Shown here one piece after another: positions 2,587 to 44,295 of a DNA stretch of 44,295 bases. Made by a program: the position numbers and the translations under genes. Within the stretch, counting starts at the first letter, position 1. Every line of letters begins with the position of its first letter. The DNA is from a virus (lineage: Duplodnaviria; Caudoviricetes). The notes beneath the pieces were generated by a model. That model was not told where the DNA came from. It worked only from the letters and a program-made list of their open reading frames with translations, and ran no database searches. The stretch lies in IMG/VR virus record IMGVR_UViG_3300025837_000005, positions 1 to 44,295 of that record; one strand, 5' to 3'.

Positions 2587-2834
2587 GTGAAGCGATTGCG
2601 TTAGAGAATAAATTATGCCGAACGGAATAATAGGCATTGAAGATTTTTGAGAAGAGCAAAGATGTTGATTGGAAACTTAATGTTTTTTTTAATCTAATCC
2701 CAAGAAGTCCCCAATCCTATCTTTGATAGGTGGGGGAGTGTTCACAACGATAGTTTCCTATATAAAAAAAATTGACAAACGTTTCGAGGCAGGAAATAGT
2801 CGATTTGTGAAGTTAGAAAAAAGGAGGCCACCTG

Positions 2835-7313: not shown

Positions 7314-10300
7314 ATGGCTCTTTTAAAATATATCCGGGAGAAAAACGGCGGCCTCCCAAACATAGATTCTTTTGCTCTTGCCAAAGCGGTTTATGACGCG
7401 AATCCGAAGTATCAAACAATGTCGTTTGATAACTTTGCCAGCGCTGCTGGAATCGAAGAAGATATAGCAGCGACAAGAAGCGGTTTAAAGGATACTGCTG
7501 CTGCCGTTATTGAAAGCGTTCCTGTTGCGGGCATGGGTCTGCTGTCATCCGCTGTTGGCGCCATAAAGGGCGTCAGTAAAAATGCCGGGGTATATGCAGA
7601 AGACCTTACGATGGCAGAACGGCTTCAGTCTAAGTCTGATAAAATGACGGCGGAGTATCTTCAGAAGCATGGCATAAACACAGGTGATAAGTTTTTAGGA
7701 CTAACGCCTGCTGGGGTTGCACAGGCCATGTCAAACATGGGTTACACCGGCCTGGGCATGGTGTCCGGCGGTGCTGGCGGTGCTGCAGGGCTGGCTGCAA
7801 CCGGAGGGAACCCGGTTGGCGGTTATGTTGGCGCTGGTGTTGCTTCAGCCGGAGTGCTAACATCTGCCGCTAAAAACCAAATCATGCGCGCCTACCGGGA
7901 TGCCCTGAATGAGAAAAGGGAAGAAGCGGGTGAGCCTATTCTGTCAGATAAAGAATGGTTTGAAACAGCAGCGGCCTTCAATAAAGAAGCCAATAAACAC
8001 GCCCTCTGGGAGTCCGGCCTCGAGACAGCCGGGGAGCTTCTCGAGTTTGGCGCTATTACCGCCCCGCTCAAAAAAATAGTTGGAAAAGAAATAGCCGAGC
8101 GGATGGCTAAAAACTGGATAGGGAAGACCGCAAATGTTGGCGTCCGGAGCGCGGCTGCAAGTGGATCAGAGCTTGCGACAGAAGCGGTCACACTTCTCAA
8201 ACAAGCGCCGATTGAAAAAAAAGCTGGTCTTAGAGAAGACGTACCTGAAAATTTTCTCGAAGCCGTTAAAGAGGTTTACCCGGTTGTCATGCCGATGGCG
8301 ATTATAGCTGGCGGCGGGGCGAAGTTGGGTCATGTCGCATATAAAAAAGCGTCTGAAAGAATAAAAGAGGCCAAAGAGAAGCGGGCTAACACCGCAGTGG
8401 AGCAGGCAAAAAAACTGGCGGAAAGCCTTATCGGGAAAGAACCCTCTGATACCGGACTGAGAGACCGGGATTTAGCTATTATCGCAGAAGAGATACTGAA
8501 CGATATTGAAACAGGGCTTTATGACAATCCGGCGGTAGCCAACGACTTGGCCGGTGAGGTTGAAAGAACCCCGGGGCTTTTGGATGCCATTGAAAAAGCA
8601 AAGAATGTGCGGGTTGGCGTGATCCCTACCCCCGCCACGCCCAGTCCGTCTTTATCTGAAACCAATCTCGGGCCCGACTTTAAGAATGCCCCGGTAAACC
8701 GGTCCGCTCTCGACGCTGAGGATTCAGAGAAAAACAGGATTCGGCAGGTTTATGCCCTGAAACAGCAAATTGCTGCCGTAAAGCAACAAGCTCCCGGGGA
8801 AACACAAACTCCGTTCCGGGCCCGGGTTATCAAAAAGCTTGAGGCAGACCTGGAGGCCCTTGGCCCGGTTAATCTTTCGGCAGAAGCTGCAAAGCGGAAC
8901 CAGGTTGTTCTCTCCGGCATGAAGCCTGAGATCGCCGGTTTTAATGTGCCGAAGACAAAAGAGGACGTTTTGGCAGAGCAGGCTTTAGCAGGGGCCGAAG
9001 AGACCGCTTGGGCCGACGAGCAGAAGACGATACAGAAACAACGCAACGATCAACAAGTCATTTCCTTAAGGAAGAGGCTTGCGGATCTCAAAAAGCAGAA
9101 ACAGACCAAGCCTGTAAAGAAACAGATAAAAGAGACGGAAGATCGTCTGGGCTCGCTGAAGCCCGCGGATATAATTCGCCAAAAAGCAAGGGAAAACCAA
9201 GCCCGAATTGATGCCGGGCTGTTCCCAGAAGAATTCCCGGAGCCTCGGACATTTGAGAATGCCCCGGTAAACCGGCTGGCCGGGAAAGCGAAGACTTTGG
9301 CCGATATGTCGGCAAGCCTCCAGACGACCGAAACAAGGGGTGTGGCGACCGATAAAGAAGGAAATCGATATTCTTTCGGTGCATCGTCTCCAAGATGGTT
9401 TACAAAACTGAACGAAAAGACGAAGTCTGTAGGGCAGGAGTTTTTTTCCAGGAAAGAAATTGACGTACTCGCAAGGAAATACGTCTCCAGGGCGAAGCTG
9501 ACGGCGAAACAACGTCAGCGCATGTTTCTTCTTGATCAGGCGGTCACCGATTTTGAGAACGAAACTGGTAAAGAGAAAAAAGGAACAGTAACCCCTTCTC
9601 CTGAGACGCCCCAAACAATCTCCAGCGAACCACTGGCTGCACCACAGTCTGACGTAACCAACACCCTTACCCCAACCGATAACAAATTGTTACCAGTTGC
9701 AGAAGCCAAATCAGTCCCCGCCGAAGTTCTGAAAGACTACCCGGACCTTGCGGCAAAAACAAAGCCGGCAGCATGGGAATCAAGTGAGCTTGTCCAAAGT
9801 CCGAACATCCAGATAGACAGAACCGAGGCAAAGAAGCAGGCCGATGGATCGTTTAGGCTGTTCTTCCGTGGCACTCGCAATGAGGTTTTTGCCGGGCAGA
9901 CGTTCGGGTCCGCATCCGAGGCCCGTCAATTTTTTAAAGTCCAGCAGGCAAAAGCGCAGCAGGATGCCGCTTCCAGCAGAAAAGAACCTGACGACAGCCC
10001 GAAATTCAGCCTGACTGAAGACAAATCTCTTTATATCACACACAATATCACCGAAGACAAGCTGCGCCATGCGCTAGATCTTGGTGGATTGGCAATGCCA
10101 TCCTCCGCCGTGTCTAGTATTAAAAACGAAGCAATGGTGAAATTTGGGGATATTTCTCTTCTCGCGCACCCTAATTTTTTACAGTCTGGTAAAGTGCGTG
10201 TGTTTGACGCCGATATTTATTCTCCGCGCTACCCGGCAGCCAAATATGATATTAACGAAAAAGCCATTACCGATTTTAATAAATGGATAGATGGGGACTG

Positions 10301-13300
10301 GAACCCATTCGTGTCGACACAAAACAAGTGGTCCGGCCATCTTGATGGTTCTGACATACAGGGCCATGGCCTAGACGCCATTTTAAATAAAAATTCTGTA
10401 AAGTATGCATGGCTTCGGGATAATGGTATTGCTCCCAAAATAACCAAGAACACGGAATCGCCGTATAAATCATTGAGCCAGGCTTTCAGGTCTCATAAAA
10501 CAGAAAACGCCTTCCGTACTTTCGTAAGGGAAAAGTTTAAAACACTCGTTACCGGGCGCAAGATTTTAAAAGGAGTTACCTCTTTAGGCAACCGGAGGTA
10601 CATACCGTATACTCTTGATAATATTATAAAACAAATGCGGTCGGGCGCATTGCGTAGTGGAGAAGCTTCTTTTTACGGCGTCGGCAGCATCCGAGCGTCA
10701 CATGCAAAAGAATACAAAAGCCTCGGGAGCATCAAAAAAGACAAGGACCGGCTAGTTAACTCTGAACAAATGAACAAAATTAAAAATGACCTACAAAACC
10801 AACTGTCAGATCTTCTTGAATCGTTGAAACCGTTTTATAAATTTGAATCAACGTCGTTTGGTTATTATGATGACGCAGGTCGCGCATTAGCTGAAGGGCG
10901 CCATGGTATAAACGAAACCTTTAAAGAGTTGCCGAAAGAGGCGCTTGATAAGATTGACGCTTTTTTAAAATCTTTAAAAGAGGCGCCGACTGAATATTTT
11001 GAAGCGAAGGCTCAAAGGATTGTCGGTTTTAACGAATTTCACACGGCAGTTGTGCCAAAAAACACATCGCCGGACGTTGTTGCCGCACTAAAAAAACACG
11101 GTCTAGCCATCAACTATTACAAGAACGGCGACAATGCCGACAGGCAGCGAGCTATACGGAAAGCCGATAAGGTGTTGTTCCAGAAGACCACTTCTCTAGG
11201 CAGCGGCTTTCCCATTGCCGAAGTTAAGGCCATTGTTTTGCCACTTTTGAACAAGCTGACCGCTGGACCAAAGGCTCACTTCGTTCAGTCAGAAGCGGAG
11301 CTTCCCCCCAGGATTATAGACATCATCCAGCGAAAAAACGCATCCGGGCAGATTGTCGCCGTTAATGATCGTGGTGACATCTATTTCGTGGCAGACAATA
11401 TCCGTTCGACCGAAGATGCAGAGTCTGCATTCCTCCACGAGGTGTTCGGGCACTACGGTGTTGAGGCGATTCTCGGCAAGGAAAAAGCCAAGCGGTTTTT
11501 CACCAGCGTCTGGATGAGCAAGCTCAATGACCCGGAGTTCATGAAAATCGCCACTACCTACGATTCAGACCTGTCCACGGTTGCTGGCAAGGTGGAAGCG
11601 GCCCGCGAATATGTGGCAAAGCTGGCAGAATCCGGAGTAGACAACTCACTAATTACGAAATTGATCGGCATGATCCGGGGCGCCCTGCGGAAGTTGGGCG
11701 TGAAAATGAAGATCAGCAACAACGATATCCGCCAACTAATTGCCCTGGGCGCCCGGCAGATGAAGGGGGTGCGGTCTAAACTGCTCGTTGCCGAAAAAAC
11801 TGTTAATTTTCAGATTGCTGAAATGGTGAAGCATGTGCTCGGCATTAAGTTAGACCCGGCACAACCATCCGACGATGTTTTTTTTATGCGGACCCCCGCT
11901 CCTACTCCCGCCCCGATGATTGACAATTTCAAGGCGCTGAAGAAAGCGTTCGGCGAAACGACAGCCAGGGTGATTCGGGGTAAGATGCCGATTGCTTATG
12001 ATCACAGTGAAGAATTGATTGCTTTTCTTCAAAAGAAAGTGCCCGTCAAGTCGCATCTCCCCTACATCATCACAAATATGGGGATGGAGTTAGAGGTAGA
12101 GTTTTTATCCGAGAAGATGATCATTGTAGCGCCTGTCAAAGAAAAACTTACGCTGTCCGCTAAGGAGTTAGCCGAAAAAGCAGGATATAGGCTGACGGAG
12201 ACGAAAACTCGAAAAGATGTTCTTTCGTTTCGGTCAGATTACTCAAGAAACAGTGTAATATGTACGTACAATGACATAGAAGGCCGGTTGCGTGACCGTT
12301 TTATATTCTGGTTGCGCCGGTATAATGCTGATGTAACGCCGAGGGCCGAAGAGTTAACACAAGATAATCTTACCCCGGAATGGAAAAAATATCTGGAAAA
12401 AAGGGGTTGGTTAAAAGATGACGGGACGTATGCCCTGTCTGGGCTAAAGAGAGAACGGGAAGATCCTTATGGTACGTCGTCAATGTGTGTGCAAATCTGG
12501 CGTAAAAACGATAAATCAAAGGGGTCATTATGGATTCTCAACAGATATAATCATACCCTTCAGGACGGGAAAAATCCCGATGTTACATATAATAGAAAGC
12601 TAAACAAAATTATAGATGGTCTTGAGGACGCCATTTATGATTATGTAAAGATAAAAAAACCCGCAACGACCACGGACACGCCCGTCCTCTCCCCCGGCAT
12701 AGTCGAAGACGCGCAAGGGAGCCTATATCACTATGCCCGTGAGCGGAATGGCGTATATTGGGGCGACGGTTTTATTATGAGTGGTGGAGCGGCTACGATT
12801 GTCAACCCGGGCATTGAACGAGTGGTGGAGGGGTTTGTTCTGCGGGCTGACGGGATTGTAAATGGGGTTGGCTTATTCGCCAACTACGAGAACAGCATTT
12901 TTAGCCTTATCGGCAAGACCCGCTTTGGCAAAAAAGGGTTGATTGAGTGCACTACAAAAGACAACAAAAAGTTTTCTTTTTTTGTGCAAAATGGGCAGAT
13001 AATAAGATTCGATACCGGCGATCTTACTGAAATCAGCGGCTACTCCCTGTGCGACAACGCCGCCCTGACTTCAATTGCCCTGCCGAACGTGACTACCATT
13101 GGCGCCTTCTCCCTGAGTTACAACTCCGCCCTGACTTCAATTGCCTTACCGAACGTTGAAACCATTGGTAATAGCTCCCTGCGTGACAACGCCGCCCTGG
13201 CTTCAATTGAACTGCCGAACGTTAAAATCATTGACAACTACTCCCTGAGCGGCAATGCCGCCCTGACTTCAATTGAACTGCCGAACGTGACCGCCATTGG

Positions 13301-16300
13301 CAACTACTCCCTGCGTGACAACGCCGCCCTGGCTTCAATTGCCTTACCGAACGTTGAAACCATTGGTAACAACTCCCTGAGCAACAACCCCGCCCTGGCT
13401 TCAATTGAACTGCCGAACGTTAAAATCATTGACAACTACTCCCTGAGCGGCAACGCCGCCTTGGCTTCAATTGCCTTACCGAACGTGACCACCATTGGCA
13501 ACTACTCCCTGAGCAACAACGACTCTCTGACTTCAATTGCCTTACCGAATGTGACCACCATTGGCAACTACTCCCTGCGCGGCAATGCCGCCCTGACTTC
13601 AATTGCCTTACCGAACGTGATCACTATTGGCAACCACTCCCTGCGCAGCAATGCCGCCCTGACTTCAATTGCCTTACCGAACGTGATCACTATTGGCAAC
13701 CACTCCCTGTGCAACAATGCCGCCCTGGCTTTAATTGAACTGCCGAACGTGACCACCATTGGCGACCTCTCCCTGATCGACAATGCCGCCCTGGCTTCAA
13801 TTGCCTTACCGAACGTTGAAACCATTGGTAACGATTCCCTGAACAACAACCCCGCCCTGGCTTCAATTGAACTGCCGAACGTGACCACCATTGGCAACTA
13901 CTCCCTGAGCGACAACGCTGCCTTGGCTTCAATTGAACTGCCGAACGTTAAAATCATTAGCAGCTACTCCCTGTGCAACAATGCCGCCCTGGCTTCAATT
14001 GAACTGCCGAACGTTAAAATCATTAGCAGCTACTCCCTGTGCAACAATGCCGCCCTGACTTCAATTGCCTTACCGAACGTGATCACTATTGACAATTACT
14101 CCCTGCGCGACAACGCCGCCCTGGCTTCAATTGCCTTGCCGAATGTGACCACTATTAGCAACAGCTCCCTGAGCAGCAACCCCGCCCTGACTTCAATTAC
14201 CCTGCCGAACGTTGAAACCATTGGTAAAAACTCCCTGCGCAACAACGCCGCCCTGGCTTCAATTGCCTTGCCGAATGTGACCACCATTGGCAACTTCTCC
14301 CTGAGCGACAACGCTGCCCTGGCTTCAATTGAACTGCCGAACGTGACCACCATTAGCGACTACTCCCTGAGCAACAACGCTGCCCTGAAGAATATTATTT
14401 TACCTTTCGGGAAGAAAATTGTCCGCAACAACAAGACGTTTACGGGTGTGAGAGCCGAAGATCAGGATAAGCCGCTGTTTCAAACCGTAAAGGCAGGCGT
14501 CTCAAATTTTTCCGGCGTTACCACAAAACAGATACGGTCTTTTTTTAAAGGCCTTGATTCCGGCCGGTCGCCGGATGGTAAGGTCTGGGTTCGGATCGGC
14601 AAGCGAATCGTAATCGTGGAACAGGTGGAGGGGTTGATCAACAAGAGACAGTTTGTGGCCACCCTGTCCATCCGGGATCCCGGCAAAGCGTTCGGTGCAT
14701 ACAAGAACAAAACCATTTATTTATCTTCCCTGGGTGATAAATATACGCTGGCCCATGAGGGCATCCATCTTCTGGATGACATCGGTCTGATAAATAGGCT
14801 GGAGCAGACAGTTATTGAAAAGGCGGCCGGTGTTGAGCGTGGGGCCTCTGTCGGTGACCGAGCTGAAGCAAGGGCTGAATATCTTACCGCCTTATTGGAG
14901 GCCCGCGAGAAAACCCGCAATACGGTCCTGGGCCGAATCGTGCAAAAGGTGCGGGATTTTATTGACGGCCTGCGGGCGCTGTTTGGGGCGACGGTCGGGC
15001 AGGTGGCCAAGGGTATTGAGACCGGGCAGGCGTTCCAGAGAGAGGCCGGTAAGGGTGAGAGTGGGGCTGGCAAGATCATCCCCCTGCTCGAGCGGTTCAA
15101 CGACCAGAGCGATGATATCCGGTTCCAAACAGTAGGCCCTGCCGATGCCCTTGGCACAGCCGATACAATCGACAAAAAAGCCGCTGAGAAAACCAGAAAG
15201 GCCGTCGATGCAATTATAGCCGACATTAAAAAAACCACAAAGAAAAATACTATCACGGTCTCTGAGACAAAGGCCCGGAAGCTGGCCAGTGATTACGTTT
15301 TTCTTAAGACTATGATGAAAGACAACAGCGTTGACTTAGAGCAAAAAATAAAAGAATACAAGGCTTTCCTTATGAAGTTGCCCCCCGGCGTCAGAGCGAA
15401 AGCGCTGGCCGGTATGCCGAAAATAGTCACGGCAAAAACCAAAAAGACGCGGCAAAAATATTTTGACCAGGTTATCGTTCAAGCGCAAAAGTTTCTCTCC
15501 GAAGAGGTTAAAAAAGAACTCCGCCGAGACATCCATAAACTGCGTCGCAAACCGCGCACGGCCAAAGGCGGAAAGGTAAAAAAGAACGTCCTCTCCCAGC
15601 TTGAAAAACTAAACAAAACCGTTTTTGGTAAAACCCCGATAAATACAATGCCGGCGGCTGAGTTTCATATCAACGCCTTATCAAAACAGCGGGAGACGCT
15701 AGAGGAAAACGTTCCTGATTCGGACAACAAGATTGCTACAAACAAGTGGTTTTCAGATATCGAAGACATTGACCAGAAGATTGCTCTGATAAATACCTTC
15801 GGTGGCATAAAGGAAATGTCCGAAGCGCAGCTTGTCAATGCTTATGAAGAGTTACAGAGGATAATCGCTGAAGGCCGGACAAAATGGCAGGTAAGTGAGG
15901 CCATACGGAAACAAAAAATGGAGGAAATCCGGGGACGCCTTGACCGTGAGATTACTGGCGAAAAAGCCCCGAAGCCGGAAACCATTGGTCAAAGAAACCA
16001 GAGAATCCGTGACCAACAAAAAGCGTGGAACCGGATCGCCGACAAACTATCTCAATTCGATACCATACATCAAAGCTGGCGGTTCTTGATGGACAAACTG
16101 GCCAGAAAGTCCGGGAAGGGTACGCTGAAGTCCGACGCGGTTGAGATTATCGGTGGGGCAGCTCATTACGCAACAAACGAAGAAAACGCGCTCAACGGTG
16201 CGGCGATTGCTATGATAACGAAAAAAGTGAAGGATTTGATCGGCGGAACGGGGCACAAAGTCAAGAGATGGGTTGATAACCAATCAAATAAAGAGGATCT

Positions 16301-18053
16301 GTATATACTAACGTATGAAAATGGAAAGAACGAACAAATCAAATTGACCCCGATGACGGCGGCATATTGGTGGGCAGTAAAACAACGGGGCGACGCTCTC
16401 GCCGAAGATGGTATGGCAATGGTCAATACGACGTTCCAGAAAATGGGTGCAGACGCAGCTTTTTTCGGGCAGATTAAGAAAACGATTGATCCCGCGGTGA
16501 TTGAGTTATCCAGGTGGCTGTCAGAGACCCTGGGAGAGCACATCTACCAGACCGTTTCGCCTGTTTACAAACAGCGGTTTGGCGCCGTCCTTGATCACGG
16601 TCGAGCATATACCCCGATTCAGCGACAAATTTTTCGTAAAGAGAGGGATGTTAATTTGCTTCAGCAGTACCAGGAAACGCCGTCGATTATTAAAGGAGCA
16701 CTTCACACGCTGACGCACTCAACCAAGTCCATTCGGGAAACCAACCTGCTAAAAGTTTGGATGGATCATATATATGACATGAACCATTTCGCGGCTTGGT
16801 CGATTCCAATACAGATGATGCAGAGTGTTTTCGGCAACCCGATCACTAAGGGATATATTGAGCGGATTCACGGAACCAACATGAATTTCGCCATAGACGA
16901 GTTTATAAAGAAATTTACTGCCGGTCGCCGTAAGCTCAAGGATGTGTTTAATGTTTTAAATCTCGATTCCTGGCGGGGCCGGTTCAGCTCGGCCGTCATT
17001 GGCGCGAACCCTGTTATTTACATCAAACAGCTTACTTCCATCCCGGCAATGGCGGCGGATATCCCGACGAACGATTTTATCGCCGGGTTTGCCGACTTCC
17101 TGAATCCGACAACCGGCAGCCCTTTGGAAAAAATGCGGATTCTCGGAAAATCTCAGTTCGTTAAAATGAGATATGAAAAAGGCCATACCCGGGACGTGGC
17201 CATTGCCAGCAGGAAGACCCTTGGGCAGACAATCGGGCAGCAACACAACTGGCCAACGAAACTGATGTTTCTGGCACGCCTGGGCGACATGCAGGCCATT
17301 TATGCCGGAGGGTGGGCCGTCTATAAGTATCACCTTGAAGCCGGTCTTAAAAACGGCTTGGGTGAGCCTGAAGCGAAAAAACGGGCGATTATTAAATTTG
17401 AGGAGGTCGCAAGAGATACCCAACAGTCTGGAGAAATTATGGACCTGGGCCTTGTCCAACAGGGAGGCGACTTTTCAAAGCTGATGACCATGTTCTTCAC
17501 TGCCCCGGCCAGTTATTATCGGGAGATATCCGCCGCCATCAGAAATATGCCTGCCAACCCTGGTAATTCCGCAAAAAGATTGTTTCTCTTCTGGGTGATT
17601 GTCCCGGCAATGTTCGAGGCAATAGCCTCCCTTCCGCTGGTATTCGATGATGACGATGACGATTTTACTCTTTTCTGGAAACGAATGTTCCGATCTGTTG
17701 TTCTCGGGCCTACAAATGGGCTTTTTCTTGTCAGAGACATCGCAGAGACGCTGTATAACATTCTGTTTCTAAAGAACGATTCCGGATGGGGCGACGCTCA
17801 ATATTCTCCGGTCGGCAGCGTATCGGATACAACAAACAGGATTGCTAAGGATCTCCGGGAAATAGTCGAAGGCGACGACGATGATTTTGAGAAGCTGTTA
17901 AAAGACGCCGTCGATATCGCTGGTTATGTGTCGGGTTACCCGCTACCGGCCGCAAGCAACTTGATCGAAAACTGGGTGGATGTCGCTGCCGGGGACACGG
18001 AGCATCCTATGGCGCGGTCTATCGGTTATAGACAATGGGCTACCGGGGATTAG
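7314..18053 (+). CDS. Giant polyvalent (probably injected virion) protein with two zincin-like HExxH motifs and a BspA-type LRR array
   Basis: 3579 aa; HEVFGHYG and HEGIH motifs; about 21 x 22-aa LPNVTTIGNYSL repeats; last gene of the ejection-protein block. Confidence 0.8.
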   Translation: MALLKYIREKNGGLPNIDSFALAKAVYDANPKYQTMSFDNFASAAGIEEDIAATRSGLKDTAAAVIESVPVAGMGLLSSAVGAIKGVSKNAGVYAEDLTMAERLQSKSDKMTAEYLQKHGINTGDKFLGLTPAGVAQAMSNMGYTGLGMVSGGAGGAAGLAATGGNPVGGYVGAGVASAGVLTSAAKNQIMRAYRDALNEKREEAGEPILSDKEWFETAAAFNKEANKHALWESGLETAGELLEFGAITAPLKKIVGKEIAERMAKNWIGKTANVGVRSAAASGSELATEAVTLLKQAPIEKKAGLREDVPENFLEAVKEVYPVVMPMAIIAGGGAKLGHVAYKKASERIKEAKEKRANTAVEQAKKLAESLIGKEPSDTGLRDRDLAIIAEEILNDIETGLYDNPAVANDLAGEVERTPGLLDAIEKAKNVRVGVIPTPATPSPSLSETNLGPDFKNAPVNRSALDAEDSEKNRIRQVYALKQQIAAVKQQAPGETQTPFRARVIKKLEADLEALGPVNLSAEAAKRNQVVLSGMKPEIAGFNVPKTKEDVLAEQALAGAEETAWADEQKTIQKQRNDQQVISLRKRLADLKKQKQTKPVKKQIKETEDRLGSLKPADIIRQKARENQARIDAGLFPEEFPEPRTFENAPVNRLAGKAKTLADMSASLQTTETRGVATDKEGNRYSFGASSPRWFTKLNEKTKSVGQEFFSRKEIDVLARKYVSRAKLTAKQRQRMFLLDQAVTDFENETGKEKKGTVTPSPETPQTISSEPLAAPQSDVTNTLTPTDNKLLPVAEAKSVPAEVLKDYPDLAAKTKPAAWESSELVQSPNIQIDRTEAKKQADGSFRLFFRGTRNEVFAGQTFGSASEARQFFKVQQAKAQQDAASSRKEPDDSPKFSLTEDKSLYITHNITEDKLRHALDLGGLAMPSSAVSSIKNEAMVKFGDISLLAHPNFLQSGKVRVFDADIYSPRYPAAKYDINEKAITDFNKWIDGDWNPFVSTQNKWSGHLDGSDIQGHGLDAILNKNSVKYAWLRDNGIAPKITKNTESPYKSLSQAFRSHKTENAFRTFVREKFKTLVTGRKILKGVTSLGNRRYIPYTLDNIIKQMRSGALRSGEASFYGVGSIRASHAKEYKSLGSIKKDKDRLVNSEQMNKIKNDLQNQLSDLLESLKPFYKFESTSFGYYDDAGRALAEGRHGINETFKELPKEALDKIDAFLKSLKEAPTEYFEAKAQRIVGFNEFHTAVVPKNTSPDVVAALKKHGLAINYYKNGDNADRQRAIRKADKVLFQKTTSLGSGFPIAEVKAIVLPLLNKLTAGPKAHFVQSEAELPPRIIDIIQRKNASGQIVAVNDRGDIYFVADNIRSTEDAESAFLHEVFGHYGVEAILGKEKAKRFFTSVWMSKLNDPEFMKIATTYDSDLSTVAGKVEAAREYVAKLAESGVDNSLITKLIGMIRGALRKLGVKMKISNNDIRQLIALGARQMKGVRSKLLVAEKTVNFQIAEMVKHVLGIKLDPAQPSDDVFFMRTPAPTPAPMIDNFKALKKAFGETTARVIRGKMPIAYDHSEELIAFLQKKVPVKSHLPYIITNMGMELEVEFLSEKMIIVAPVKEKLTLSAKELAEKAGYRLTETKTRKDVLSFRSDYSRNSVICTYNDIEGRLRDRFIFWLRRYNADVTPRAEELTQDNLTPEWKKYLEKRGWLKDDGTYALSGLKREREDPYGTSSMCVQIWRKNDKSKGSLWILNRYNHTLQDGKNPDVTYNRKLNKIIDGLEDAIYDYVKIKKPATTTDTPVLSPGIVEDAQGSLYHYARERNGVYWGDGFIMSGGAATIVNPGIERVVEGFVLRADGIVNGVGLFANYENSIFSLIGKTRFGKKGLIECTTKDNKKFSFFVQNGQIIRFDTGDLTEISGYSLCDNAALTSIALPNVTTIGAFSLSYNSALTSIALPNVETIGNSSLRDNAALASIELPNVKIIDNYSLSGNAALTSIELPNVTAIGNYSLRDNAALASIALPNVETIGNNSLSNNPALASIELPNVKIIDNYSLSGNAALASIALPNVTTIGNYSLSNNDSLTSIALPNVTTIGNYSLRGNAALTSIALPNVITIGNHSLRSNAALTSIALPNVITIGNHSLCNNAALALIELPNVTTIGDLSLIDNAALASIALPNVETIGNDSLNNNPALASIELPNVTTIGNYSLSDNAALASIELPNVKIISSYSLCNNAALASIELPNVKIISSYSLCNNAALTSIALPNVITIDNYSLRDNAALASIALPNVTTISNSSLSSNPALTSITLPNVETIGKNSLRNNAALASIALPNVTTIGNFSLSDNAALASIELPNVTTISDYSLSNNAALKNIILPFGKKIVRNNKTFTGVRAEDQDKPLFQTVKAGVSNFSGVTTKQIRSFFKGLDSGRSPDGKVWVRIGKRIVIVEQVEGLINKRQFVATLSIRDPGKAFGAYKNKTIYLSSLGDKYTLAHEGIHLLDDIGLINRLEQTVIEKAAGVERGASVGDRAEARAEYLTALLEAREKTRNTVLGRIVQKVRDFIDGLRALFGATVGQVAKGIETGQAFQREAGKGESGAGKIIPLLERFNDQSDDIRFQTVGPADALGTADTIDKKAAEKTRKAVDAIIADIKKTTKKNTITVSETKARKLASDYVFLKTMMKDNSVDLEQKIKEYKAFLMKLPPGVRAKALAGMPKIVTAKTKKTRQKYFDQVIVQAQKFLSEEVKKELRRDIHKLRRKPRTAKGGKVKKNVLSQLEKLNKTVFGKTPINTMPAAEFHINALSKQRETLEENVPDSDNKIATNKWFSDIEDIDQKIALINTFGGIKEMSEAQLVNAYEELQRIIAEGRTKWQVSEAIRKQKMEEIRGRLDREITGEKAPKPETIGQRNQRIRDQQKAWNRIADKLSQFDTIHQSWRFLMDKLARKSGKGTLKSDAVEIIGGAAHYATNEENALNGAAIAMITKKVKDLIGGTGHKVKRWVDNQSNKEDLYILTYENGKNEQIKLTPMTAAYWWAVKQRGDALAEDGMAMVNTTFQKMGADAAFFGQIKKTIDPAVIELSRWLSETLGEHIYQTVSPVYKQRFGAVLDHGRAYTPIQRQIFRKERDVNLLQQYQETPSIIKGALHTLTHSTKSIRETNLLKVWMDHIYDMNHFAAWSIPIQMMQSVFGNPITKGYIERIHGTNMNFAIDEFIKKFTAGRRKLKDVFNVLNLDSWRGRFSSAVIGANPVIYIKQLTSIPAMAADIPTNDFIAGFADFLNPTTGSPLEKMRILGKSQFVKMRYEKGHTRDVAIASRKTLGQTIGQQHNWPTKLMFLARLGDMQAIYAGGWAVYKYHLEAGLKNGLGEPEAKKRAIIKFEEVARDTQQSGEIMDLGLVQQGGDFSKLMTMFFTAPASYYREISAAIRNMPANPGNSAKRLFLFWVIVPAMFEAIASLPLVFDDDDDDFTLFWKRMFRSVVLGPTNGLFLVRDIAETLYNILFLKNDSGWGDAQYSPVGSVSDTTNRIAKDLREIVEGDDDDFEKLLKDAVDIAGYVSGYPLPAASNLIENWVDVAAGDTEHPMARSIGYRQWATGD
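13020..14400 (+). repeat. About 21 tandem 66-nt repeats encoding BspA-like leucine-rich repeats
   Basis: Unit GCCCTG(A/G)CTTCAATTG..(C/T)T.CCGAACGT......ATTNNCNNCNNCTCCCTGNNCNNCAAC. Confidence 0.92.
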
Positions 18054-20886: not shown

Positions 20887-21008
20887 GTCAATTACTAATC
20901 GGCTATAAGCCGATAGCTTGCAAGTAAGTCGGCTGAAGCCGACTCCCTGCGATAGGTTTATTGACTAAAACCCTACCTGGATAGCATGTAGCGTCCAAGT
21001 AATTTTGC
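20887..21008 (-). ncRNA. Orphan TnpB omegaRNA scaffold; predicted guide ATATCGGTTCGCAGAGACGG
   Basis: 122-nt block differing from 361-482 at about 3 positions, ending in ...TAATTGAC. Confidence 0.8.
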
Positions 21009-21973: not shown

Positions 21974-22078
21974 TTTTTCTCCTTTGGCCCCTATCGGGGC
22001 CGTTGATGTCCAGGCCGTAAGGCTTGGATATTCCCGGATGCGCCGGGTCGGTTGCTTTCTTCCACGGCATAAATCATA

Positions 22079-22783
22079 TTATTTGCCAGATACCATCTCT
22101 CTAAATTTGGCAGCTTGAGCGGCCTGTATGGTTTTCCGTGCGGCATCTTCTGCGACCCATGTGGCGGCCTTTGTGTCTCTTGTGGTTTTCCGTGCAGCCC
22201 ATGCGGCGACCCATGTGGCGATTCCTGTGGCGATCCCTACGACGTTCTTTGCGACATTCTTTGCGACGACCCCTGCGGCCACTAGGGCGGCCCTTTCGGC
22301 CAGTGTGGCGGCCTTTTCGGCCAGTGCGGCTTCCCGTGCGATATCTCCTGCGATGCATGCGTCCTCTGTGGCGACCCCTGTGGCAATCCCTGCGACGGCC
22401 CTTGCGGCGGCCCCTGCGGCGGCCCTTGCGGCACCCCATGCGTCCTCTGCGGCGTCCTTTGCGGCGGATAGTTCTTTATCGGTGGCCTGTCCGTTAGCGT
22501 ATCTCTCAGCTACACCGAGAGCATTTAAACTTCGTTGATCTGTCATCAGGTATTGCCCTTGCCGTGCGCACCACACAGCATACAGTCGCCATACCCGATT
22601 ATACTCTGGTGCAGCATAGCAGCACCAGAGAGCATCCTCCAAGCCATTGCTGTCGAGGATGACGCTAAAAGGCAACGATTCATCATCTAACATGGTTTTG
22701 CCAAGATATTTTAATAGTTTTTTCCATCCTCTGGAACCTATATTGCACATTTGAATTTTGTTTAGCGTTGTTGTCAATTGCAT
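22079..22783 (-). CDS. Ala-rich phage protein, tandem paralogue 3
   Basis: MQLTTTLNKI...ILDSNGLEDALWC...AERYANGQAT; variable Ala-rich tail. Confidence 0.85.
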   Translation of the reverse strand: MQLTTTLNKIQMCNIGSRGWKKLLKYLGKTMLDDESLPFSVILDSNGLEDALWCCYAAPEYNRVWRLYAVWCARQGQYLMTDQRSLNALGVAERYANGQATDKELSAAKDAAEDAWGAARAAAGAAARAVAGIATGVATEDACIAGDIAREAALAEKAATLAERAALVAAGVVAKNVAKNVVGIATGIATWVAAWAARKTTRDTKAATWVAEDAARKTIQAAQAAKFREMVSGK

Positions 22784-22849
22784 TTCTCTCTCCTTTTTGT
22801 TTTCCCGGATGCGCCGGGTCGGTTGCTTTTTCCTGCGGCATAAATCATA

Positions 22850-23485
22850 TTATCTGCCAGATACCATCTCTCTAAATTTGGCAGCTTGAGCGGCCTGTGT
22901 GCTTTCCCGTGCGGCATCTTCTGCGACCCATGTGGTGGCCTCTGTGTCTCTTGCGGTTTTCCATGCGGCCCATGCAGCGATCCTTGCAACGGCCTGTGCG
23001 ACGGCCCTTGCAGCGTTCTTTGCGGCCAGTACGGCGGCCAGTGCGACTTCCCGTGCGGCATCTTCTGCAACCCATGCGGTATCTTCTGCGACCCGTGCGT
23101 CCTTTGCGGCGGCCCATGCGGCGTCCCTTGTGACGGCCCATGCGTCCTTTGCGGCGGTCCATGCGGCGGATAGCTCTTTATCGGTGGCCTGTCCGTTAGC
23201 ATACCTCTCGGCCACATCGAGAGCATTCAAACTTCGTTGATCTGTCATCAAGTACTGTACTTGCCGTGCGCACCACACAGCATACAGTTGCCATACCCGA
23301 TTATGCTCTGGCATAGTATGACAGCACCAGAGAGCATCCTCCAAACCATTGCTGTCGAGGATGACGCTAAAAGGCAACAATTCATTATCTGCCACGGTTT
23401 TGCCAAGATGTTTCAACAGTTTTCTCCAACCTTTAGAGCATGGACTGCACATTTGGATTCTATTCAGCGTTGTTGTCAATTGCAT
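22850..23485 (-). CDS. Ala-rich phage protein, tandem paralogue 2
   Basis: Same motifs as its neighbours; 211 aa. Confidence 0.85.
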   Translation of the reverse strand: MQLTTTLNRIQMCSPCSKGWRKLLKHLGKTVADNELLPFSVILDSNGLEDALWCCHTMPEHNRVWQLYAVWCARQVQYLMTDQRSLNALDVAERYANGQATDKELSAAWTAAKDAWAVTRDAAWAAAKDARVAEDTAWVAEDAAREVALAAVLAAKNAARAVAQAVARIAAWAAWKTARDTEATTWVAEDAARESTQAAQAAKFREMVSGR

Positions 23486-23551
23486 TTCTCTCTCCCTTTT
23501 GTTTTCCCGGATGCGCCGGGTCGGTTGCTTTCTTCCACGGCATAAATCATA

Positions 23552-24187
23552 TTATTTGCCAGAGACCATCTCTCTAAATTTGGCAGCTTGAGCGGCCTGT
23601 ACGGTTTTCCGTGCGGCATCTTCTGCGACCCATGTGGCGGCCTTTGTGTCTCTTGTGGTTTTCCGTGCAGCCCATGCGGCGATCTCTGCGACGGCCTGTG
23701 CGACGACCCCTGCGGTGTCCCCTGCGATGACCCTTGCGACGACCCCTGCGGCGTTCCTTACGGCCAGTGCGGCTTTCCGTGCGGTATCTTCTGCAATCCA
23801 TGCGTCCTTTGTGACGGCCCATGCGTCCTTTGCGGCGGCCCATGCGTCCTTTGCGGCGGCCCATGCGGCGGATAGCTCTTTATCAGTGGCCTGTCCGTTA
23901 GCATACCTCTCGGCCACATCGAGAGCATCCAAGCTTCGTTGATCTATCATCAGGTACTGCACTTGCCGTGCACACCATATAGTATACAGTCGCCATACCC
24001 GATTATGCTCTGGTGCAGTATGACAGCACCAGAGAGCATCATCCAAGCCATTGCTGTCGAGGATAACGCTAAAAGGCAACGATTCATCGTCTGCCACGGT
24101 TTTGCCAAGATATTTCAACAGTTTTCTCCATCCTTTAGAGCATGGATTGCACATTTGAATTTTATTCAGCGTTGTTGTTAATTGCAT
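23552..24187 (-). CDS. Ala-rich phage protein, tandem paralogue 1
   Basis: Same motifs as its neighbours; 211 aa. Confidence 0.85.
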   Translation of the reverse strand: MQLTTTLNKIQMCNPCSKGWRKLLKYLGKTVADDESLPFSVILDSNGLDDALWCCHTAPEHNRVWRLYTIWCARQVQYLMIDQRSLDALDVAERYANGQATDKELSAAWAAAKDAWAAAKDAWAVTKDAWIAEDTARKAALAVRNAAGVVARVIAGDTAGVVAQAVAEIAAWAARKTTRDTKAATWVAEDAARKTVQAAQAAKFREMVSGK

Positions 24188-24252
24188 TTCTCTCTCCCTT
24201 TTGTTTTCCCGGGTGCGCCGGGTCGGTTGCTTTCTCTCGCCTTTTGTCTCAT

Positions 24253-28750: not shown

Positions 28751-29776
28751 ATGGCTAAATTAAAAGCACCGTTCCCATATTTTGGAGGAAAATTAAGAAT
28801 GGCCTCTCTAATTTGGAAAGCACTTGGGAATCCAAAACATTACATCGAGCCTTTTTTCGGGTCTGGCGCTGTGCTTCTTGCGCGGGAAAGATTTAATCCG
28901 GCAGAAACAATAGAGACGATATGTGATAAAGATGGATTTTTGGCGAACGTTTGGCGGTCTTTACAGCAATGTCCGGATGAAGTCGCGAAATGGTGCGACT
29001 GGCCCGTGAATCATGTCGATTTGAACGCTCGGCGGCGGCGGTTGCTTGCCGAAGAACCAGCCCTTTTAAAAAATCTTGCAGAAAATGACGAATATTGTAA
29101 TCCGAAGCTGGCTGGATATTGGGTTTGGGCGGCGTCCTGCTGGATCGGTTCGGGCTTGACGCGTTTAAACGCGATACCCTCTATCAGCGACAGCGGGATG
29201 GGGGTGCACGCCATTGGGCAGATCCCCCACATCAGCAGCAGCGGGATGGGGGTGCACGCCATTGGGCATATCCCCCACATCAGCGACAGCGGGATGGGGG
29301 TACACGACCCGTACAATACCAATATTTATAAATTATTCAGGCAATTATCAGAGCGGTTACGGTATGCCCGGGTAGTGTGCGGCGACTGGACTCGTGTTTG
29401 TGGTGGCAAATGGCAAGACAAAGCTGGTGATGTCGGTATTTTTTTTGATCCGCCATACGGGGTTAAGGATAGGGATTTGTTTTTATATCGTCACGATTCA
29501 TCAACCATCGCTGCCGATGTTATGGCCTGGTGTAAGGAGCGCGGTAACATTCCATCATATCGCATTGTCCTGGCAGGCTATGAAGAATATCAAGAGTTGA
29601 TTGAAAATTACGGTTGGAAGGCTCAAGTATGGCAATCAAATGGCGGATATGCCAACACGAGCACCAATAAAACCCGTGGAGACGATAATAAAAAGCGGGA
29701 ATGTCTGTATTTTTCACCGTATTGTATGAAGCAATTACAACAGGGGGAGCTTTTTAAGTCAACTACCGCCAGCTAA
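28751..29776 (+). CDS. DNA adenine methyltransferase (Dam/D12-like)
   Basis: PYFGGK, EPFFGSGAV, DPPY; three internal 15-aa repeats. Confidence 0.88.
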   Translation: MAKLKAPFPYFGGKLRMASLIWKALGNPKHYIEPFFGSGAVLLARERFNPAETIETICDKDGFLANVWRSLQQCPDEVAKWCDWPVNHVDLNARRRRLLAEEPALLKNLAENDEYCNPKLAGYWVWAASCWIGSGLTRLNAIPSISDSGMGVHAIGQIPHISSSGMGVHAIGHIPHISDSGMGVHDPYNTNIYKLFRQLSERLRYARVVCGDWTRVCGGKWQDKAGDVGIFFDPPYGVKDRDLFLYRHDSSTIAADVMAWCKERGNIPSYRIVLAGYEEYQELIENYGWKAQVWQSNGGYANTSTNKTRGDDNKKRECLYFSPYCMKQLQQGELFKSTTAS

Positions 29777-30001
29777 AGCAGGCGGCTTGTAACTGCACTC
29801 CGCCGCAATTCCTCATAAGGGGCTTTGGCATCATCGTGCGCTACGATACGGCTATTGACTGAGCCGCTACCTGGATAGCATATAGCGTCCAAGTATTTAT
29901 ATAATATGCACATTAAATGCTTTTGTCAAGAAAAATCTTTTAAAAAAGAAGGACGGCATTCCTCTCCCAGCTAAAGCAGGGAGTTTCCTGCCGTGTGATT
30001 T
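29758..30001 (-). mobile_element. Minimal IS200/IS605 derivative: left end, promoter and omegaRNA only
   Basis: Near-identical to both ends of 5951-6297; TTGACA-17-TATTAT (29929-29901) abuts the scaffold; followed by ATGA. Confidence 0.88.
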
Positions 30002-30107: not shown

Positions 30108-30209
30108 ATGACACTTCATGACACTTGAAGGGCATTTTCATATTAGCCCCAGAAAAAAGCCCTAAGGGCATTTTAATGAAAATGCCCTTCAAGTGTCATG
30201 AAGTGTCAT
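30108..30209. repeat. Perfect 34-bp inverted repeat followed by an AT-rich tract; candidate replication origin
   Basis: ATGACACTTCATGACACTTGAAGGGCATTTTCAT (30108-30141) and its reverse complement (30176-30209). Confidence 0.8.
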
Positions 30210-40723: not shown

Positions 40724-41977
40724 ATGGGACAATTATGGTCAGTTAATACTCTCGGGGGCTATATGTACTCCGACAATCTAAGCGCTGAGCTGCGGACCGC
40801 GGTTCAGCCGGGTCTGAGATTCCGTTAAGATAGGCGGAATTAAAACTTTGCTATATGCGGGAACGAACTGAGTATATATCACTACCAAAGTGTAAAAATG
40901 TGATATTGCAGTCAATCCGCAGGGAAGTCAAATATGGTATTTTGACCCCCCAACGACTACACGCAGAGCAAACTCAGTATTTGAGTTTGATGATATAGTC
41001 TGGACTTACGGGCGACCGTAAGAGGGATTACGAAAAGAAACCCCGCCTCAGTAGAGGTCAGTAGGCTTTAGCCTGTCCGCCGGATGACAGGCGGGGCCGA
41101 AAGCAACAGATTGCAGTTTTGCGATGTCAAAGACCCTGAGCAGAGCAAGCGGCACAAGGGTGCTATATTTCACTGGAACGTTTATTCGGACGTTGAGACG
41201 CAGGGTAAAAACCTGGCGGAAACCAGCGTTATGCCTGAAACGCAGTTCACCATCACTCCAGGGACTCTTACCATTACGGAATATGGGAACTCCGTACCTT
41301 ACACCGGGATACTCGATGAGCTTTCTGAACATCCCGTGAAAGAGCTGATTCACAAGGTTTTGAAGAACGACTGTAAAAAGGCTCTTGACACCGCTGCACA
41401 CGATCAGTTTAAGCAGACTCCGTTACGAGTTGTACCGGCGGACAACGGTGCCAGTCTTGACTCCCTTGTCATGACTGAGAACGGCGCTACTACCATAACG
41501 AACAACGTTGCGATGGGGAAGAATCACATTAAGGTGATTATCGACACCATGAAAGAGCGGAATATTCCGCCCTACATGGAAGAGGATTACTACGCCATCG
41601 CCCGGCCGTCCACTTACAGAACGTTTAAGAACGACTTGGAGACTATCAAGCAGTACGTTGAGACCGGGTTCGGCCAGATTCTCCGTGGGGAGATTGGCCG
41701 ATACGAAGGCTGTCGGTTCGTTGAACAGACGAATATCTTGGCTGGGATCGGATCCACAGCGGATGCGCCTTGGACAAACGCCATGTCTGACTGGGCATTT
41801 TTCATGGGCGAGGACACCGTAGCAGAGGCTGTCGCGGTTCCCGAGGAAATTCGTGGAAAATTGCCCGGCGATTTTGGGCGAGACAAGGGCATCGCATGGT
41901 ACGCGCTTTTGGGATACGGTCTGGTTCATACTGACGCAACTCAGGCTCGCATTATCATGTGGGATTCTGCTGCATAA
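40724..41977 (+). CDS. Major capsid protein (N4-gp56-like), spliced: join(40724..40825,41114..41977), 321 aa
   Basis: Exon 1 MGQLWSVNTLGGYMYSDNLS...LRFR joins in frame to QFCDVKD...; TITEYGNSV, GEIGRYEG, DFGRDKGIAWY; AGGAGG RBS. Confidence 0.88.
40826..41113 (+). ncRNA. Group I intron without ORF (288 nt)
   Basis: Exon-terminal U in P1 (TTCCGT/GCGGAA with G-U pair); ATGCGGGAA and AATCCGCAG core; R CGACTACACG and S GATATAGTC forming P7; terminal G; removal restores frame. Confidence 0.88.
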
Positions 41978-42000: not shown

Positions 42001-42456
42001 ATGAGTTACGCAAACCCGAAATATAGCGTTATCCATCAACATCGGTTCACCGGTAACGATGCTTCGACGTTATTACTTACTCCCATAGCGGGCACGAGCA
42101 CCGCGCTAGAAAATAGTCTCACCTGCGACCCGTGGAATCCCGGCCGGGCGATCACCCTGAAGAAGTTGTCGTATCAGGTGAAGACCCCCCGGACCGATTC
42201 CGGCAGTAGCCTGGAGATCGAAGTTCACAACGTCGATGTCAACAACGGCGATGTCAAGGTGGGTAGCCTGGTTATTACCGGCACGGCCGCAAATGGCATC
42301 GTTACGATGCCTGCTGATTTGGATTCCAAGATTGCGGCGGACGGGTATGTCGTGCTGGTTGCTAAATCGACCACAACGGCTGCAAACGAGAATTCTGCCA
42401 TTGGCCAGGCGAGTATCACTTATCAGGAGACCTATTGTCTAACAGGTGACGAATAG
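42001..42456 (+). CDS. Putative capsid decoration/minor structural protein
   Basis: Beta-rich ORF immediately after the capsid gene; AAGGAG RBS. Confidence 0.6.
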   Translation: MSYANPKYSVIHQHRFTGNDASTLLLTPIAGTSTALENSLTCDPWNPGRAITLKKLSYQVKTPRTDSGSSLEIEVHNVDVNNGDVKVGSLVITGTAANGIVTMPADLDSKIAADGYVVLVAKSTTTAANENSAIGQASITYQETYCLTGDE

Positions 42457-42570
42457 CGCATAACGTGAAGCAGGAACCAAATACTATTTAAGAAGTGGTC
42501 TTAAATGGATAAATTTTAGAGAACGGATACAATCGTAACCATCTACAACAATTGGAAAAGGAGCGTTAAT

Positions 42571-42714
42571 ATGGACGCATTAAAAGAAGGCTTGTCCGAA
42601 AAGATCGATATTTCCAAGGTTGACCCGGATCTGGAGCGTCATGGACCTAATCAGGTGCCTAAGAAGACCGGGGAGACCGTCAAGAGAGACGGCAAGAGCT
42701 ATAAAATTAAGTGA
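42571..42714 (+). CDS. Small hypothetical protein (47 aa)
   Basis: AAGGAG RBS; MDALKEGLSEKIDISK... Confidence 0.6.
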   Translation: MDALKEGLSEKIDISKVDPDLERHGPNQVPKKTGETVKRDGKSYKIK

Positions 42715-42769
42715 ACACCAAACCGCTACGGGGGGGGGGCCTCCCGTAGCTCTAAAAGGAGGTTAAAAC

Positions 42770-42958
42770 GTGGCCTACTTTTCTGCTAAGCCTCCGGTGC
42801 CGGACGCCAAAAAAATGCACGACCCGGAATTCACCAAACAGGATATTAAAAAGGGTTTTTCGGTTTCCCCTATGTATGGGAAAACCGGTGAGCCTTCCAA
42901 TATACTAACTGTTCGAAACCGAGAGTGGCGCAAGGAAGTGGAGAATGCTTTCGGGTAA
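42770..42958 (+). CDS. Small hypothetical protein
   Basis: AGGAGG RBS, GTG start; current stop supplied by the inserted element. Confidence 0.65.
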   Translation: MAYFSAKPPVPDAKKMHDPEFTKQDIKKGFSVSPMYGKTGEPSNILTVRNREWRKEVENAFG

Positions 42959-43079
42959 ACTACCGTCAGCTAAAGCAGGCGGCTTGTAACTAACAGATAG
43001 AAACTGTTGCTACGATAGTCTATTCGTTAAGCAAAATCTTTTATAAAAGGAGGATGAGCAATTTCTCGCTCAATTTATT
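42955..43079 (-). mobile_element. Highly eroded IS200/IS605 derivative (same family as 5951 and 29758)
   Basis: GTAAACTACCGTCAGCTAAAGCAGGCGGCTTGTAACT right end; AAAATCTTTTA..AAAGGAGGA..GCA.TT remnant; ends at ATGA. Confidence 0.75.
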
Positions 43080-43244
43080 ATGAAACTAGACAAAAAAAGA
43101 CCGTTTGGAGAGATTTTGGGTAAGTCTCCCAAGCCAGGCGCAAAGTTTGAACAGGATGGAAACTATTTTAATAGCGTTGGGGATTTAGTCGGGCCAGAGA
43201 AGCCCGCGGTTAACCCGGAGACGTCCAGGCGTCCTCGAAAGTGA
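43080..43244 (+). CDS. Small phage protein (54 aa, MKLDKKRPFGEILG...KFEQDGNYFN...)
   Basis: Hand translation; flanked on both sides by IS derivatives at its start and stop. Confidence 0.65.
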   Translation: MKLDKKRPFGEILGKSPKPGAKFEQDGNYFNSVGDLVGPEKPAVNPETSRRPRK

Positions 43245-43437
43245 ACGCTCCCCTGAATAAATTCAGGGGCTTCTCAGTTCAACGAGGGGCATTACAACGC
43301 CGCCTCTCCCTGAGCGTTTAGATGGTTTGGACGGTTCTCGCCCTACCATATTTAGTTGTCCAATTATCGCATTCTTTTCCGGTAAATCTTGAGGTAAGCC
43401 GGCCGAACGCGACAACTCTGGTTCCATGCGGGGTGAA
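43241..43437 (-). mobile_element. IS200/IS605 derivative of a second family carrying a TnpB-type omegaRNA scaffold
   Basis: Minus strand GTAGGGCGAGAACCGTCC...AACGCTCAGGGAGA...CTCGTTGAACTGAGAAGCCCCTGAATTTATTCAGGGGAGCGTTCAC; followed by ATGA at 43438. Confidence 0.78.
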
Positions 43438-44121
43438 ATGAGCACATATCTTCAATTATGCCAGAAGATTACAAGAGACCTTGGCGTTGGAACGTCGATC
43501 TCGACAGTATCAGATCAGATAGGGATGTCGCGCAAGTTCGTGGACTGGATTGCGGACGCTGATGAATATGTTCAGTCCCTTTATTTTGACTGGAACTTCT
43601 TGTGGAGCCAGTACAGTACTACAACGGTGGTTGGCACACGTGAATATAGCGCCCCTTCAGATCTCGGTGTGTGGGATAAAGATTCGTTTTATCTCGATTA
43701 TCTTTCTGATGGTTATATTAAGTTGAGCGAAATTCCGTACCTGACATGGCGTCAGGCATTTCTGCCAGGGTCTCACACAAACTCCAAATCTTCATCTTTT
43801 CTTTTAGCCCCAAACCATAACGTGTATTTAGAGCCGATTCCAGACGCAGCCTATATGTTGACCGCTGATTATTGGAAGTCGGGAACCAGAATGACGACCA
43901 ATGTTGATACGTCGGATATTCCTGCCAGGTTCGAGCGGATCATAATCGCCCGGGCAAAGATTTACTACGCCGAACACGAAGAGTTGCCGAACGTGTTTGA
44001 ACTCGCAACCAATGAATTTGACAGTCTTTTAAAGCAACTGGAAGCAGCCGAACTTCCTGGGAGGGAAGAGTACGGTCGCGGTCATGCTCACGACTCTGAC
44101 ATGGTTATAAGGACTGAATAG
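43438..44121 (+). CDS. Head-tail adaptor / tail tubular protein A-like
   Basis: MSTYLQLCQ...WIADA...WNFLW...LEPIPD; position after the head genes. Confidence 0.75.
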   Translation: MSTYLQLCQKITRDLGVGTSISTVSDQIGMSRKFVDWIADADEYVQSLYFDWNFLWSQYSTTTVVGTREYSAPSDLGVWDKDSFYLDYLSDGYIKLSEIPYLTWRQAFLPGSHTNSKSSSFLLAPNHNVYLEPIPDAAYMLTADYWKSGTRMTTNVDTSDIPARFERIIIARAKIYYAEHEELPNVFELATNEFDSLLKQLEAAELPGREEYGRGHAHDSDMVIRTE

Positions 44122-44295
44122 TGAAAGACACAAGGCGCATAGAGTATTTTCCATTACAAGGCGGGGAGGACCTGATAACTCCGCTTTATTCCAGAAACCC
44201 CGGCAGCCTTGTTGTGTCTCAGAACTTTGAGTGCGATCCGGGGGGAAGATACCGCCGCATTCTTGGTTATGAGCGGTTCGACGGGCACCCAAGCC
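44121..44295 (+). CDS. Tail/DNA-stabilisation protein N-terminus, truncated by the window edge
   Basis: GTG overlapping the adaptor stop; reads YFPLQGGEDLITP...NFEC...GRYRRILGYERFDG. Confidence 0.65.
   Translation, partial: MKDTRRIEYFPLQGGEDLITPLYSRNPGSLVVSQNFECDPGGRYRRILGYERFDGHPS

Follow-up and report, generated by a model that had tools for sequence, protein, structure and literature searches.

A 121-bp TnpB right-end remnant joined to a native gene stub in front of a phage head-tail adaptor gene

Background

The closest described systems are the omegaRNAs of ISDra2 and ISGst. In the accessible part of PMC10097598, the active scaffold of ISDra2 is given as 116 nt, with a pseudoknot between positions -5 to -3 and positions -103 to -105. 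The phage locus described here resembles these RNAs in that the 3' end of tnpB lies over a structured RNA, with a subterminal hairpin, a TCAC end, a scaffold of about 120 nt and a predicted pseudoknot. It differs in that tnpB is reduced to its last 32 codons and that neither a left end nor a cognate nuclease was found in the record.

PATE-like elements carry no genes but an omegaRNA, as far as the available text of Meers et al. (bioRxiv 10.1101/2023.03.14.532601) describes them. The phage remnant is like these in having no intact protein gene and in keeping a predicted omegaRNA that would need TnpB in trans. PATEs as described there have both ends and can be mobilised, whereas a right end alone was found here.

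Two further systems concern ribosomes that cross small inserts. For mycobacterial interspersed repetitive units (MIRUs), translational coupling has been proposed to soften the effect of insertion (available part of PMC12548453), and the phage locus shares with them a short ORF, located in a small insert and overlapping the start of the next gene at -4. The MIRU ORF belongs to the repeated unit, however, while in the phage the coupled end is native and one site is known; the overlapping end of the ORF, the Shine-Dalgarno (SD) motif and the ATGA are all native, and no repeats at many sites were found in the collections searched, which are incomplete. In integrons, ribosomes may be brought to the following gene by ORF-11 of attI1 and by short ORFs within attC sites, according to the portion of PMC8876359 available. 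The likeness lies in short ORFs across a structured site of a mobile element, and the difference, judged from the same portion, in that ORF-11 has its own SD and a tested function, whereas the phage mini-ORFs are without SD. A literature search gave no title on the replacement of stop codons by IS200/IS605 ends, which is a weak negative as most subscription papers were outside its scope.

Sequence data and comparisons

The window is the whole virus record of 44,295 bases. The region is present in 24 runs, all of them aquifer or groundwater metagenomes; no RNA run is listed among these, which has no bearing on expression. For the contig comparison 4 of the 24 runs were aligned to positions 42400-44295, using the best-supported contigs only. 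The DNA of other alleles is known from contig ends of 13-30 letters and from one joint with a 24-letter side. Right ends were compared with those of 11 other TnpB loci, which are distant relatives and whose ends were chosen by eye; three near duplicates (L020, L027 and L032) and one locus with no clear end (L030) were left out. Three gaps with wrong start coordinates were excluded. In the dinucleotide shuffles both outer junctions were fixed, and a chain was counted as gap-free at spacings from -4 to 0.

Results

The locus lies inside the head-tail cluster, between a gene of 54 amino acids and the adaptor gene (Table 1). An earlier note on this DNA had described a gap-free relay of reading frames through this gap, and when checked on the sequence the frames are as described. 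TGA 43242-43244 overlaps GTG 43241, which opens 26 codons ending at TAG 43319-43321, and ATG 43322 follows directly; its 39 codons end at TGA 43439-43441, in overlap with ATG 43438 of the adaptor. Both mini-ORFs share one frame, broken by a single TAG and then ATG. For neither was an exact sequence found in a collection of 15 billion proteins or a match found in Pfam. A representative search with mini-ORF 2 gave two long repeat proteins, which were rejected as chance-like matches.

Table 1. Features of the locus between the small phage gene and the adaptor gene (positions in the window).
Feature	Coordinates	Strand	Remark
Small phage gene, 54 aa	43080..43244	+	Its TGA stop is contributed by the right end of the transposon
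Flank that would be the guide	43221..43240	-	Would target its own site, judging from TnpB biology
IS200/IS605 remnant, 121 bp	43241..43361	-	tnpB 3' end, predicted omegaRNA scaffold and right end
Terminal TCAC of right end	43241..43244	-	Reads GTGA on the plus strand, which makes the overlap of stop and GTG automatic
Mini-ORF 1, 26 codons	43241..43321	+	Antisense of right end and tnpB codons
Subterminal right-end hairpin	43250..43269	-	8-bp stem, 4-nt loop
Last 32 tnpB codons and stop	43263..43361	-	32/32 residues identical to P0022 367-398
Mini-ORF 2, 39 codons	43322..43441	+	Chimeric: 13 antisense-tnpB codons linked through one junction codon to 25 native ones
Predicted pseudoknot loop bases (-97 to -94)	43334..43337	-	Pairable with terminal -6 to -3
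Native stub, the final 25 codons of an older phage frame with its stop	43364..43441	+	Overlaps the adaptor start
SD-like motif of adaptor	43430..43436	+	Inside the native stub; -10.9 kcal/mol pairing; predicted 6-bp hairpin
Head-tail adaptor gene, 227 aa	43438..44121	+	PF24175 SU10_adaptor, E 8.5e-16; phrog_10775

By its sequence, the stretch 43241-43361 clearly derives from a TnpB element. The minus-strand frame matches P0022, an intact TnpB of 398 amino acids, to its very end; P0022 contains the Pfam domains PF01385, PF07282 and PF12323 and in NCBIfam is above the cut-off for NF040570 and reaches 420.6 against 425 for NF038281. A search with this frame gave seven proteins among 19 candidates, all of them TnpB. 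The 27 nt of the right-end hairpin are all identical in the full TnpB element of another phage contig (L010). Both the terminal TCAN motif and the subterminal hairpin of a right end are present, and by prediction so is an omegaRNA scaffold, with at least the length of about 116 nt and the loop-to-end pseudoknot. Measured against shuffled sequences, the fold of the 121 nt has a z of -4.39 for the minus strand and of -2.91 for the plus strand, and a comparable loop partner is found at -83 to -101 in six of the 11 other loci, two of them with a changed pair. The proposal in the earlier note that one strand encodes a guide RNA agrees with this prediction, in which the 3' end of tnpB and the right end combine with a stable fold and a pseudoknot-capable loop. 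A pseudoknot partner at -41 was also considered and was rejected, the loop at -97 being closer to the geometry of ISDra2.

No left end was found, and beyond 43363 there is a native coding stub; no hairpin resembling the left ends of L010 or L019 was seen by eye. A remnant of this kind, without a left end, is likely unable to move. There is one copy in the record, and matches in viral contigs are either the same site or the hairpin alone, in collections that are incomplete. No DNA match was found in plasmids and GenBank phages, and exact and degenerate right-end patterns gave nothing in genome contigs. The DNA of the parent element was not found in viral contigs (best match 70%) or in plasmids (all below 60%); the parent is seen in the same aquifer metagenomes as the window allele. 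At 42400-43800 Rfam gave nothing beyond two chance hits, and the group I intron core that would mark an IStron was not found.

The sequence from 43364 to 43441 is of native phage origin. The residues of the stub match the C-terminus of P0064, a protein of 138 amino acids from another allele, at 24 of 25 positions, and the one differing residue corresponds to a T>C change at 43395 that is present in all four runs. When the frame was read through its TAG, the search gave one protein among 36 candidates, which was P0064; this is a single predicted protein on one contig, known as a protein sequence. Because P0064 ends in the stub and the contig ends agree, the stub together with its SD-like motif and ATGA overlap also occurs where the transposon piece is absent. 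In both relatives examined (L004 and L005) the gene upstream of the adaptor overlaps it by ATGA, and the L004 gene is identical to the stub at 13 of 28 positions (pairwise E 5e-6). This gene scores 0.97 with clusters of PF01075 (GT9 glycosyltransferase) in the Atlas and has no match in Pfam, NCBIfam, PHROGs or PDB; its GT9 label is therefore that of the Atlas, the profile libraries having missed it. The stub is likely to have been derived from a GT9-like glycosyltransferase gene, to judge from these similarities. The front part of P0064 is unrelated to the L004 gene, so that more than one rearrangement has taken place at this site. When the stub motif, the small protein or the L004 gene was used as the query, only the same allele or the contig of the query itself was recovered. 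At 43360-43432, in the native stub, the minus strand forms a 12-bp stem that includes G-U pairs (z -2.0, with six of 200 shuffles as good) and that may be due to chance.

The limits of the transposon piece are given by the contigs. Among those listed, contigs stop at 43240 in X10 and X11, and in at least three of the four runs (X11, X12 and X17) the right end runs on into a different flank. At 43361 contigs of X11 and X12 diverge, and their minus-strand letters, read by eye, give AQNILQF, which are the next residues of the parent. At 43364 contigs of X11 and X17, again among those listed, join from other letters in the frame TFTNKIIL, which are the residues just before the stub in P0064. At least one X10 contig lacks the transposon part and connects 43240 with 43364, the shorter side of this joint being 24 letters. 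The listed contigs also converge at 43437. Because contigs diverge or join at 43240, 43361 and 43364, the transposon piece is 43241-43361 and not the whole gap. The earlier note had let an inserted element span the entire gap, which does not hold, since transposon-derived sequence stops at 43361 and 43364-43441 is found behind other upstream sequence. Three other delimitations were rejected: an element of 192 bp between two GTGAA words (no contig break at 43245 among the contigs listed), one of 153 bp ending at 43393 (the stub frame continues through that point in P0064) and a single one of 197 bp (the sequence beyond 43361 is phage).

At least one X11 contig continues past 43240 as ATAA, which places a TAA stop in the codon of the TGA of the window. 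On the minus strand this reads TTAT, a known TnpB motif; the observation is from a single contig end, and the left junction of the element is lost. The ends of the proteins encoded upstream vary. Of 13 longer relatives of the 54-aa protein, which end 4-6 residues past RK, 11 end in Ala and two in ARG, while four forms of 54 amino acids end in RK and relatives show still other endings. The 54-aa protein clusters with peptidylprolyl isomerases of 428 amino acids (protein cluster 4), apparently a clustering artefact.

Each of the three junctions has a source of its own. Junction 1 is the terminal TCAC read backwards and is inherent in any TCAC end; the other right ends, when reversed, give NTGA in 11/11 cases and ATG, GTG or TTG in 9/11. 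Junction 2 (TAG/ATG) is the reverse complement of the Pro-Ser-Lys codons of tnpB, and the Ser whose codon makes this junction is absent in two of seven related TnpBs. Junction 3 and the SD-like motif are native phage sequence. The motif GGGGTG is present on the plus strand at 43430-43435, where the earlier note had placed it, but it sits in the native stub and is not supplied by an inserted element. The note had suggested checking whether other family members keep the frames open. In the 11 other TnpB right ends, which are from distant relatives, a start directly after the first stop was found in none and a -4 overlap in two. The relay is thus real as text, but it is mostly inherited and is no property of the element, as had been claimed. 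The only free variable is the frame of the deletion join, and when the breakpoints were slid 24 of 74 positions (about 1 in 3) kept the chain.

A gap-free chain was obtained in 2507 of 20000 dinucleotide shuffles of the whole gap, rising to 4289-5265 of 20000 with looser spacing. When only the transposon part was shuffled the chain appeared in 4664/20000 with a fixed frame and in 2111/20000 with a random frame, and synonymous recoding of this part gave 3735/20000. Over the null models the gap-free chain thus had a frequency of 11-23%. Most of the null chains are one open frame; the exact form with two ORFs was seen in 341/20000 dinucleotide shuffles and in 226-528/20000 across the nulls. The chain is not clearly more than chance would give. 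In this phage it crosses one of three mini-elements that lie between co-oriented genes; for the minus-strand miniatures at 5951 and 42955 there is no chain, even with loose spacing.

The two mini-ORFs have no SD-like pairing (-3.4 kcal/mol for mini-ORF 1 and -3.0 for mini-ORF 2), compared with -10.9 for the adaptor and -7.4 to -12.8 kcal/mol for six other genes. This absence proves little, since the real 54-aa gene, with a pairing of only -0.3 kcal/mol, is also without SD. The opening energy at the start of mini-ORF 2 is 13.5, the highest of the 12 starts tested, and that of the adaptor is 6.7, within the range of other starts (4.9-10.3). The spacings along the chain are -4, 0 and -4, and on sequence grounds would be compatible with translational coupling, for which spacings from -4 to +3 are reported to be best in the available part of PMC12548453. 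Tight junctions of -1, 0 and -4 are also found at 3/3 valid junctions among the first large structural genes. The SD of the adaptor is close to its start and in a predicted short hairpin, and considering this together with the ATGA overlaps of the relatives, ribosomes that cross the stub could bring some benefit.

Discussion

The locus is probably best explained as a 121-bp TnpB right end joined to the last 25 native codons, with the chain of mini-ORFs as a likely by-product of a deletion. The element would have entered antisense at a TTAT-type motif containing the TAA stop of the small gene, and its TCAC end would have swapped this TAA for TGA. A later deletion would then have removed the left end and the greater part of both tnpB and the next gene, leaving a join that may have come to be in frame by chance, at about 1 in 3. 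Insertion followed by deletion would be the order of these events, with capture of a fragment as the alternative order. The adaptor likely starts mainly from its own native SD-like motif. The scarcity of the exact two-ORF chain in the nulls speaks against this explanation, and the position of the adaptor SD, near the start and within a predicted hairpin, together with the ATGA overlaps of the relatives, makes selection for the in-frame join plausible. The earlier note regarded the insertion as nearly silent, which is probably wrong, as the remnant replaces a longer frame with the same 25 terminal codons in other alleles. The event is likely to have removed most of a gene and would therefore not have been silent.

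It is unlikely, though worth weighing, that the phage kept a deletion which, from parts of accidental origin, restored ribosome traffic through the stub into the adaptor. Ribosomes would then open the SD hairpin, and the chain would be a functional patch selected in the phage and no trait of the element, a proposal to which the same low probability is given. The ATGA overlaps in 2/2 divergent relatives and the end of P0064 in the stub frame are in line with it, as are the pairing of the adaptor SD in the predicted fold, the tight junctions between structural genes, and the spacings that fall within the range given as best for coupling in the available part of PMC12548453. The window allele also recurs in four other contigs, but these are more than 99.8% identical where compared and therefore count as one allele. 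Against selection, an in-frame join needs just a 1-in-3 chance, and three successive reinitiations, including two at structured starts without SD, would be expected to give little output; the opening energy of the adaptor, moreover, is not outside that of other starts. A mobile unit that itself keeps mini-ORFs on the sense strand, so that any insertion would pass ribosomes on in the manner of a MIRU, is highly improbable. A coupled start would come free with the right end, given the NTGA and NTG frequencies above, and the MIRUs offer a precedent; however, neither the last junction nor the SD belongs to the transposon part, a left end was not found, and no copy was seen at another site in the viral contigs or genomes searched. 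The lack of a start directly after the first stop in the other loci (with the -4 overlap in 2/11) and the loss of the Ser in some TnpBs also speak against it, and the boundary at 43361-43364 largely refutes it.

That the remnant is a stand-alone guide-RNA locus, which loads a cognate TnpB in trans and cuts the empty-site alleles of co-infecting relatives, is a doubtful reading, although one compatible with the others. The 121 nt kept are close to the 116 nt of the active ISDra2 scaffold, the fold is strong with a pseudoknot partner in the loop, and the parent element occurs in the same metagenomes; the available text of Meers et al. adds that PATEs often encode omegaRNAs which need TnpB in trans. 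The TnpB of the phage itself, however, shows only 25% identity with the parent over 189 residues, the 400 nt upstream on the minus strand gave no sigma-70-like promoter, and any recent remnant would be expected to fold well. A broader speculation, with slim prospects, is that IS200/IS605 ends are pre-adapted to hiding at stop codons. Antisense insertion at TTAT or TTAA inside a TAA would regain a TGA and a coupled NTG from the TCAN end, and selection would here have kept a deletion that leaves one strand with a complete guide-RNA scaffold and the other with an in-frame path for ribosomes into the adaptor, making a dual-use homing cassette of 121 nt.

If the locus is a scar, as in the preferred explanation, it matters little beyond illustrating the decay of TnpB ends in densely packed phage genomes and the way in which tidy chains of ORFs can mislead. 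Should the relay be shown to be necessary, it would provide a natural example in which antisense transposon sequence has served to rebuild coupling. If the swap of stop codons is general, it would help to explain how IS200/IS605 insertions survive at the ends of phage genes.

Other features of the phage and its relatives

The window contains further IS200/IS605 sequences. A full TnpB gene (377-1531, minus strand) lies with its ends at 362-1700, and its product is the phage TnpB whose 25% identity with the parent of the remnant at 43241 is noted above. A second remnant of 121 nt, at 20888-21008, reproduces at 98% the 3' end and right end of the TnpB element that this phage carries; no left end was seen, and it lies beside duplicated gene fragments and 21-nt repeats. 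This remnant is the better candidate for a stand-alone guide because its cognate TnpB is in the same record. Three related miniatures are found on the minus strand, at 5951-6293, 29758-30000 and 42955-43070. The first two have both ends and inner pieces derived from tnpB that differ in length. In the miniatures at 5951 and 42955 the stop of the upstream gene lies inside the element, and in the latter an ORF of nine codons overlaps the start at 43080 by ATGA. In L010 a full TnpB element is located at 2501-3715, and its right end supplies the TGA of a convergent gene of 705 amino acids. By eye its left flank starts with a TAA-containing motif, which gives a second case of a stop-codon swap.

The major capsid gene contains a group I intron (RF00028, 70.8 bits) near its 5' end, at 40782-41022, which is the only gathering-level Rfam match of the window; no endonuclease ORF was seen in this intron. 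The gene at 7314-18053 encodes a protein of 3579 amino acids with 19 tandem units of 66 nt (22 residues, leucine-rich-repeat-like) at about 12970-14460. At 22031-24235 there are three or four paralogous genes in tandem, each about 700-770 nt long and with a common upstream motif of 30 nt, and a perfect inverted repeat of 34 bp with a spacer of 34 nt is located at 30108-30209.
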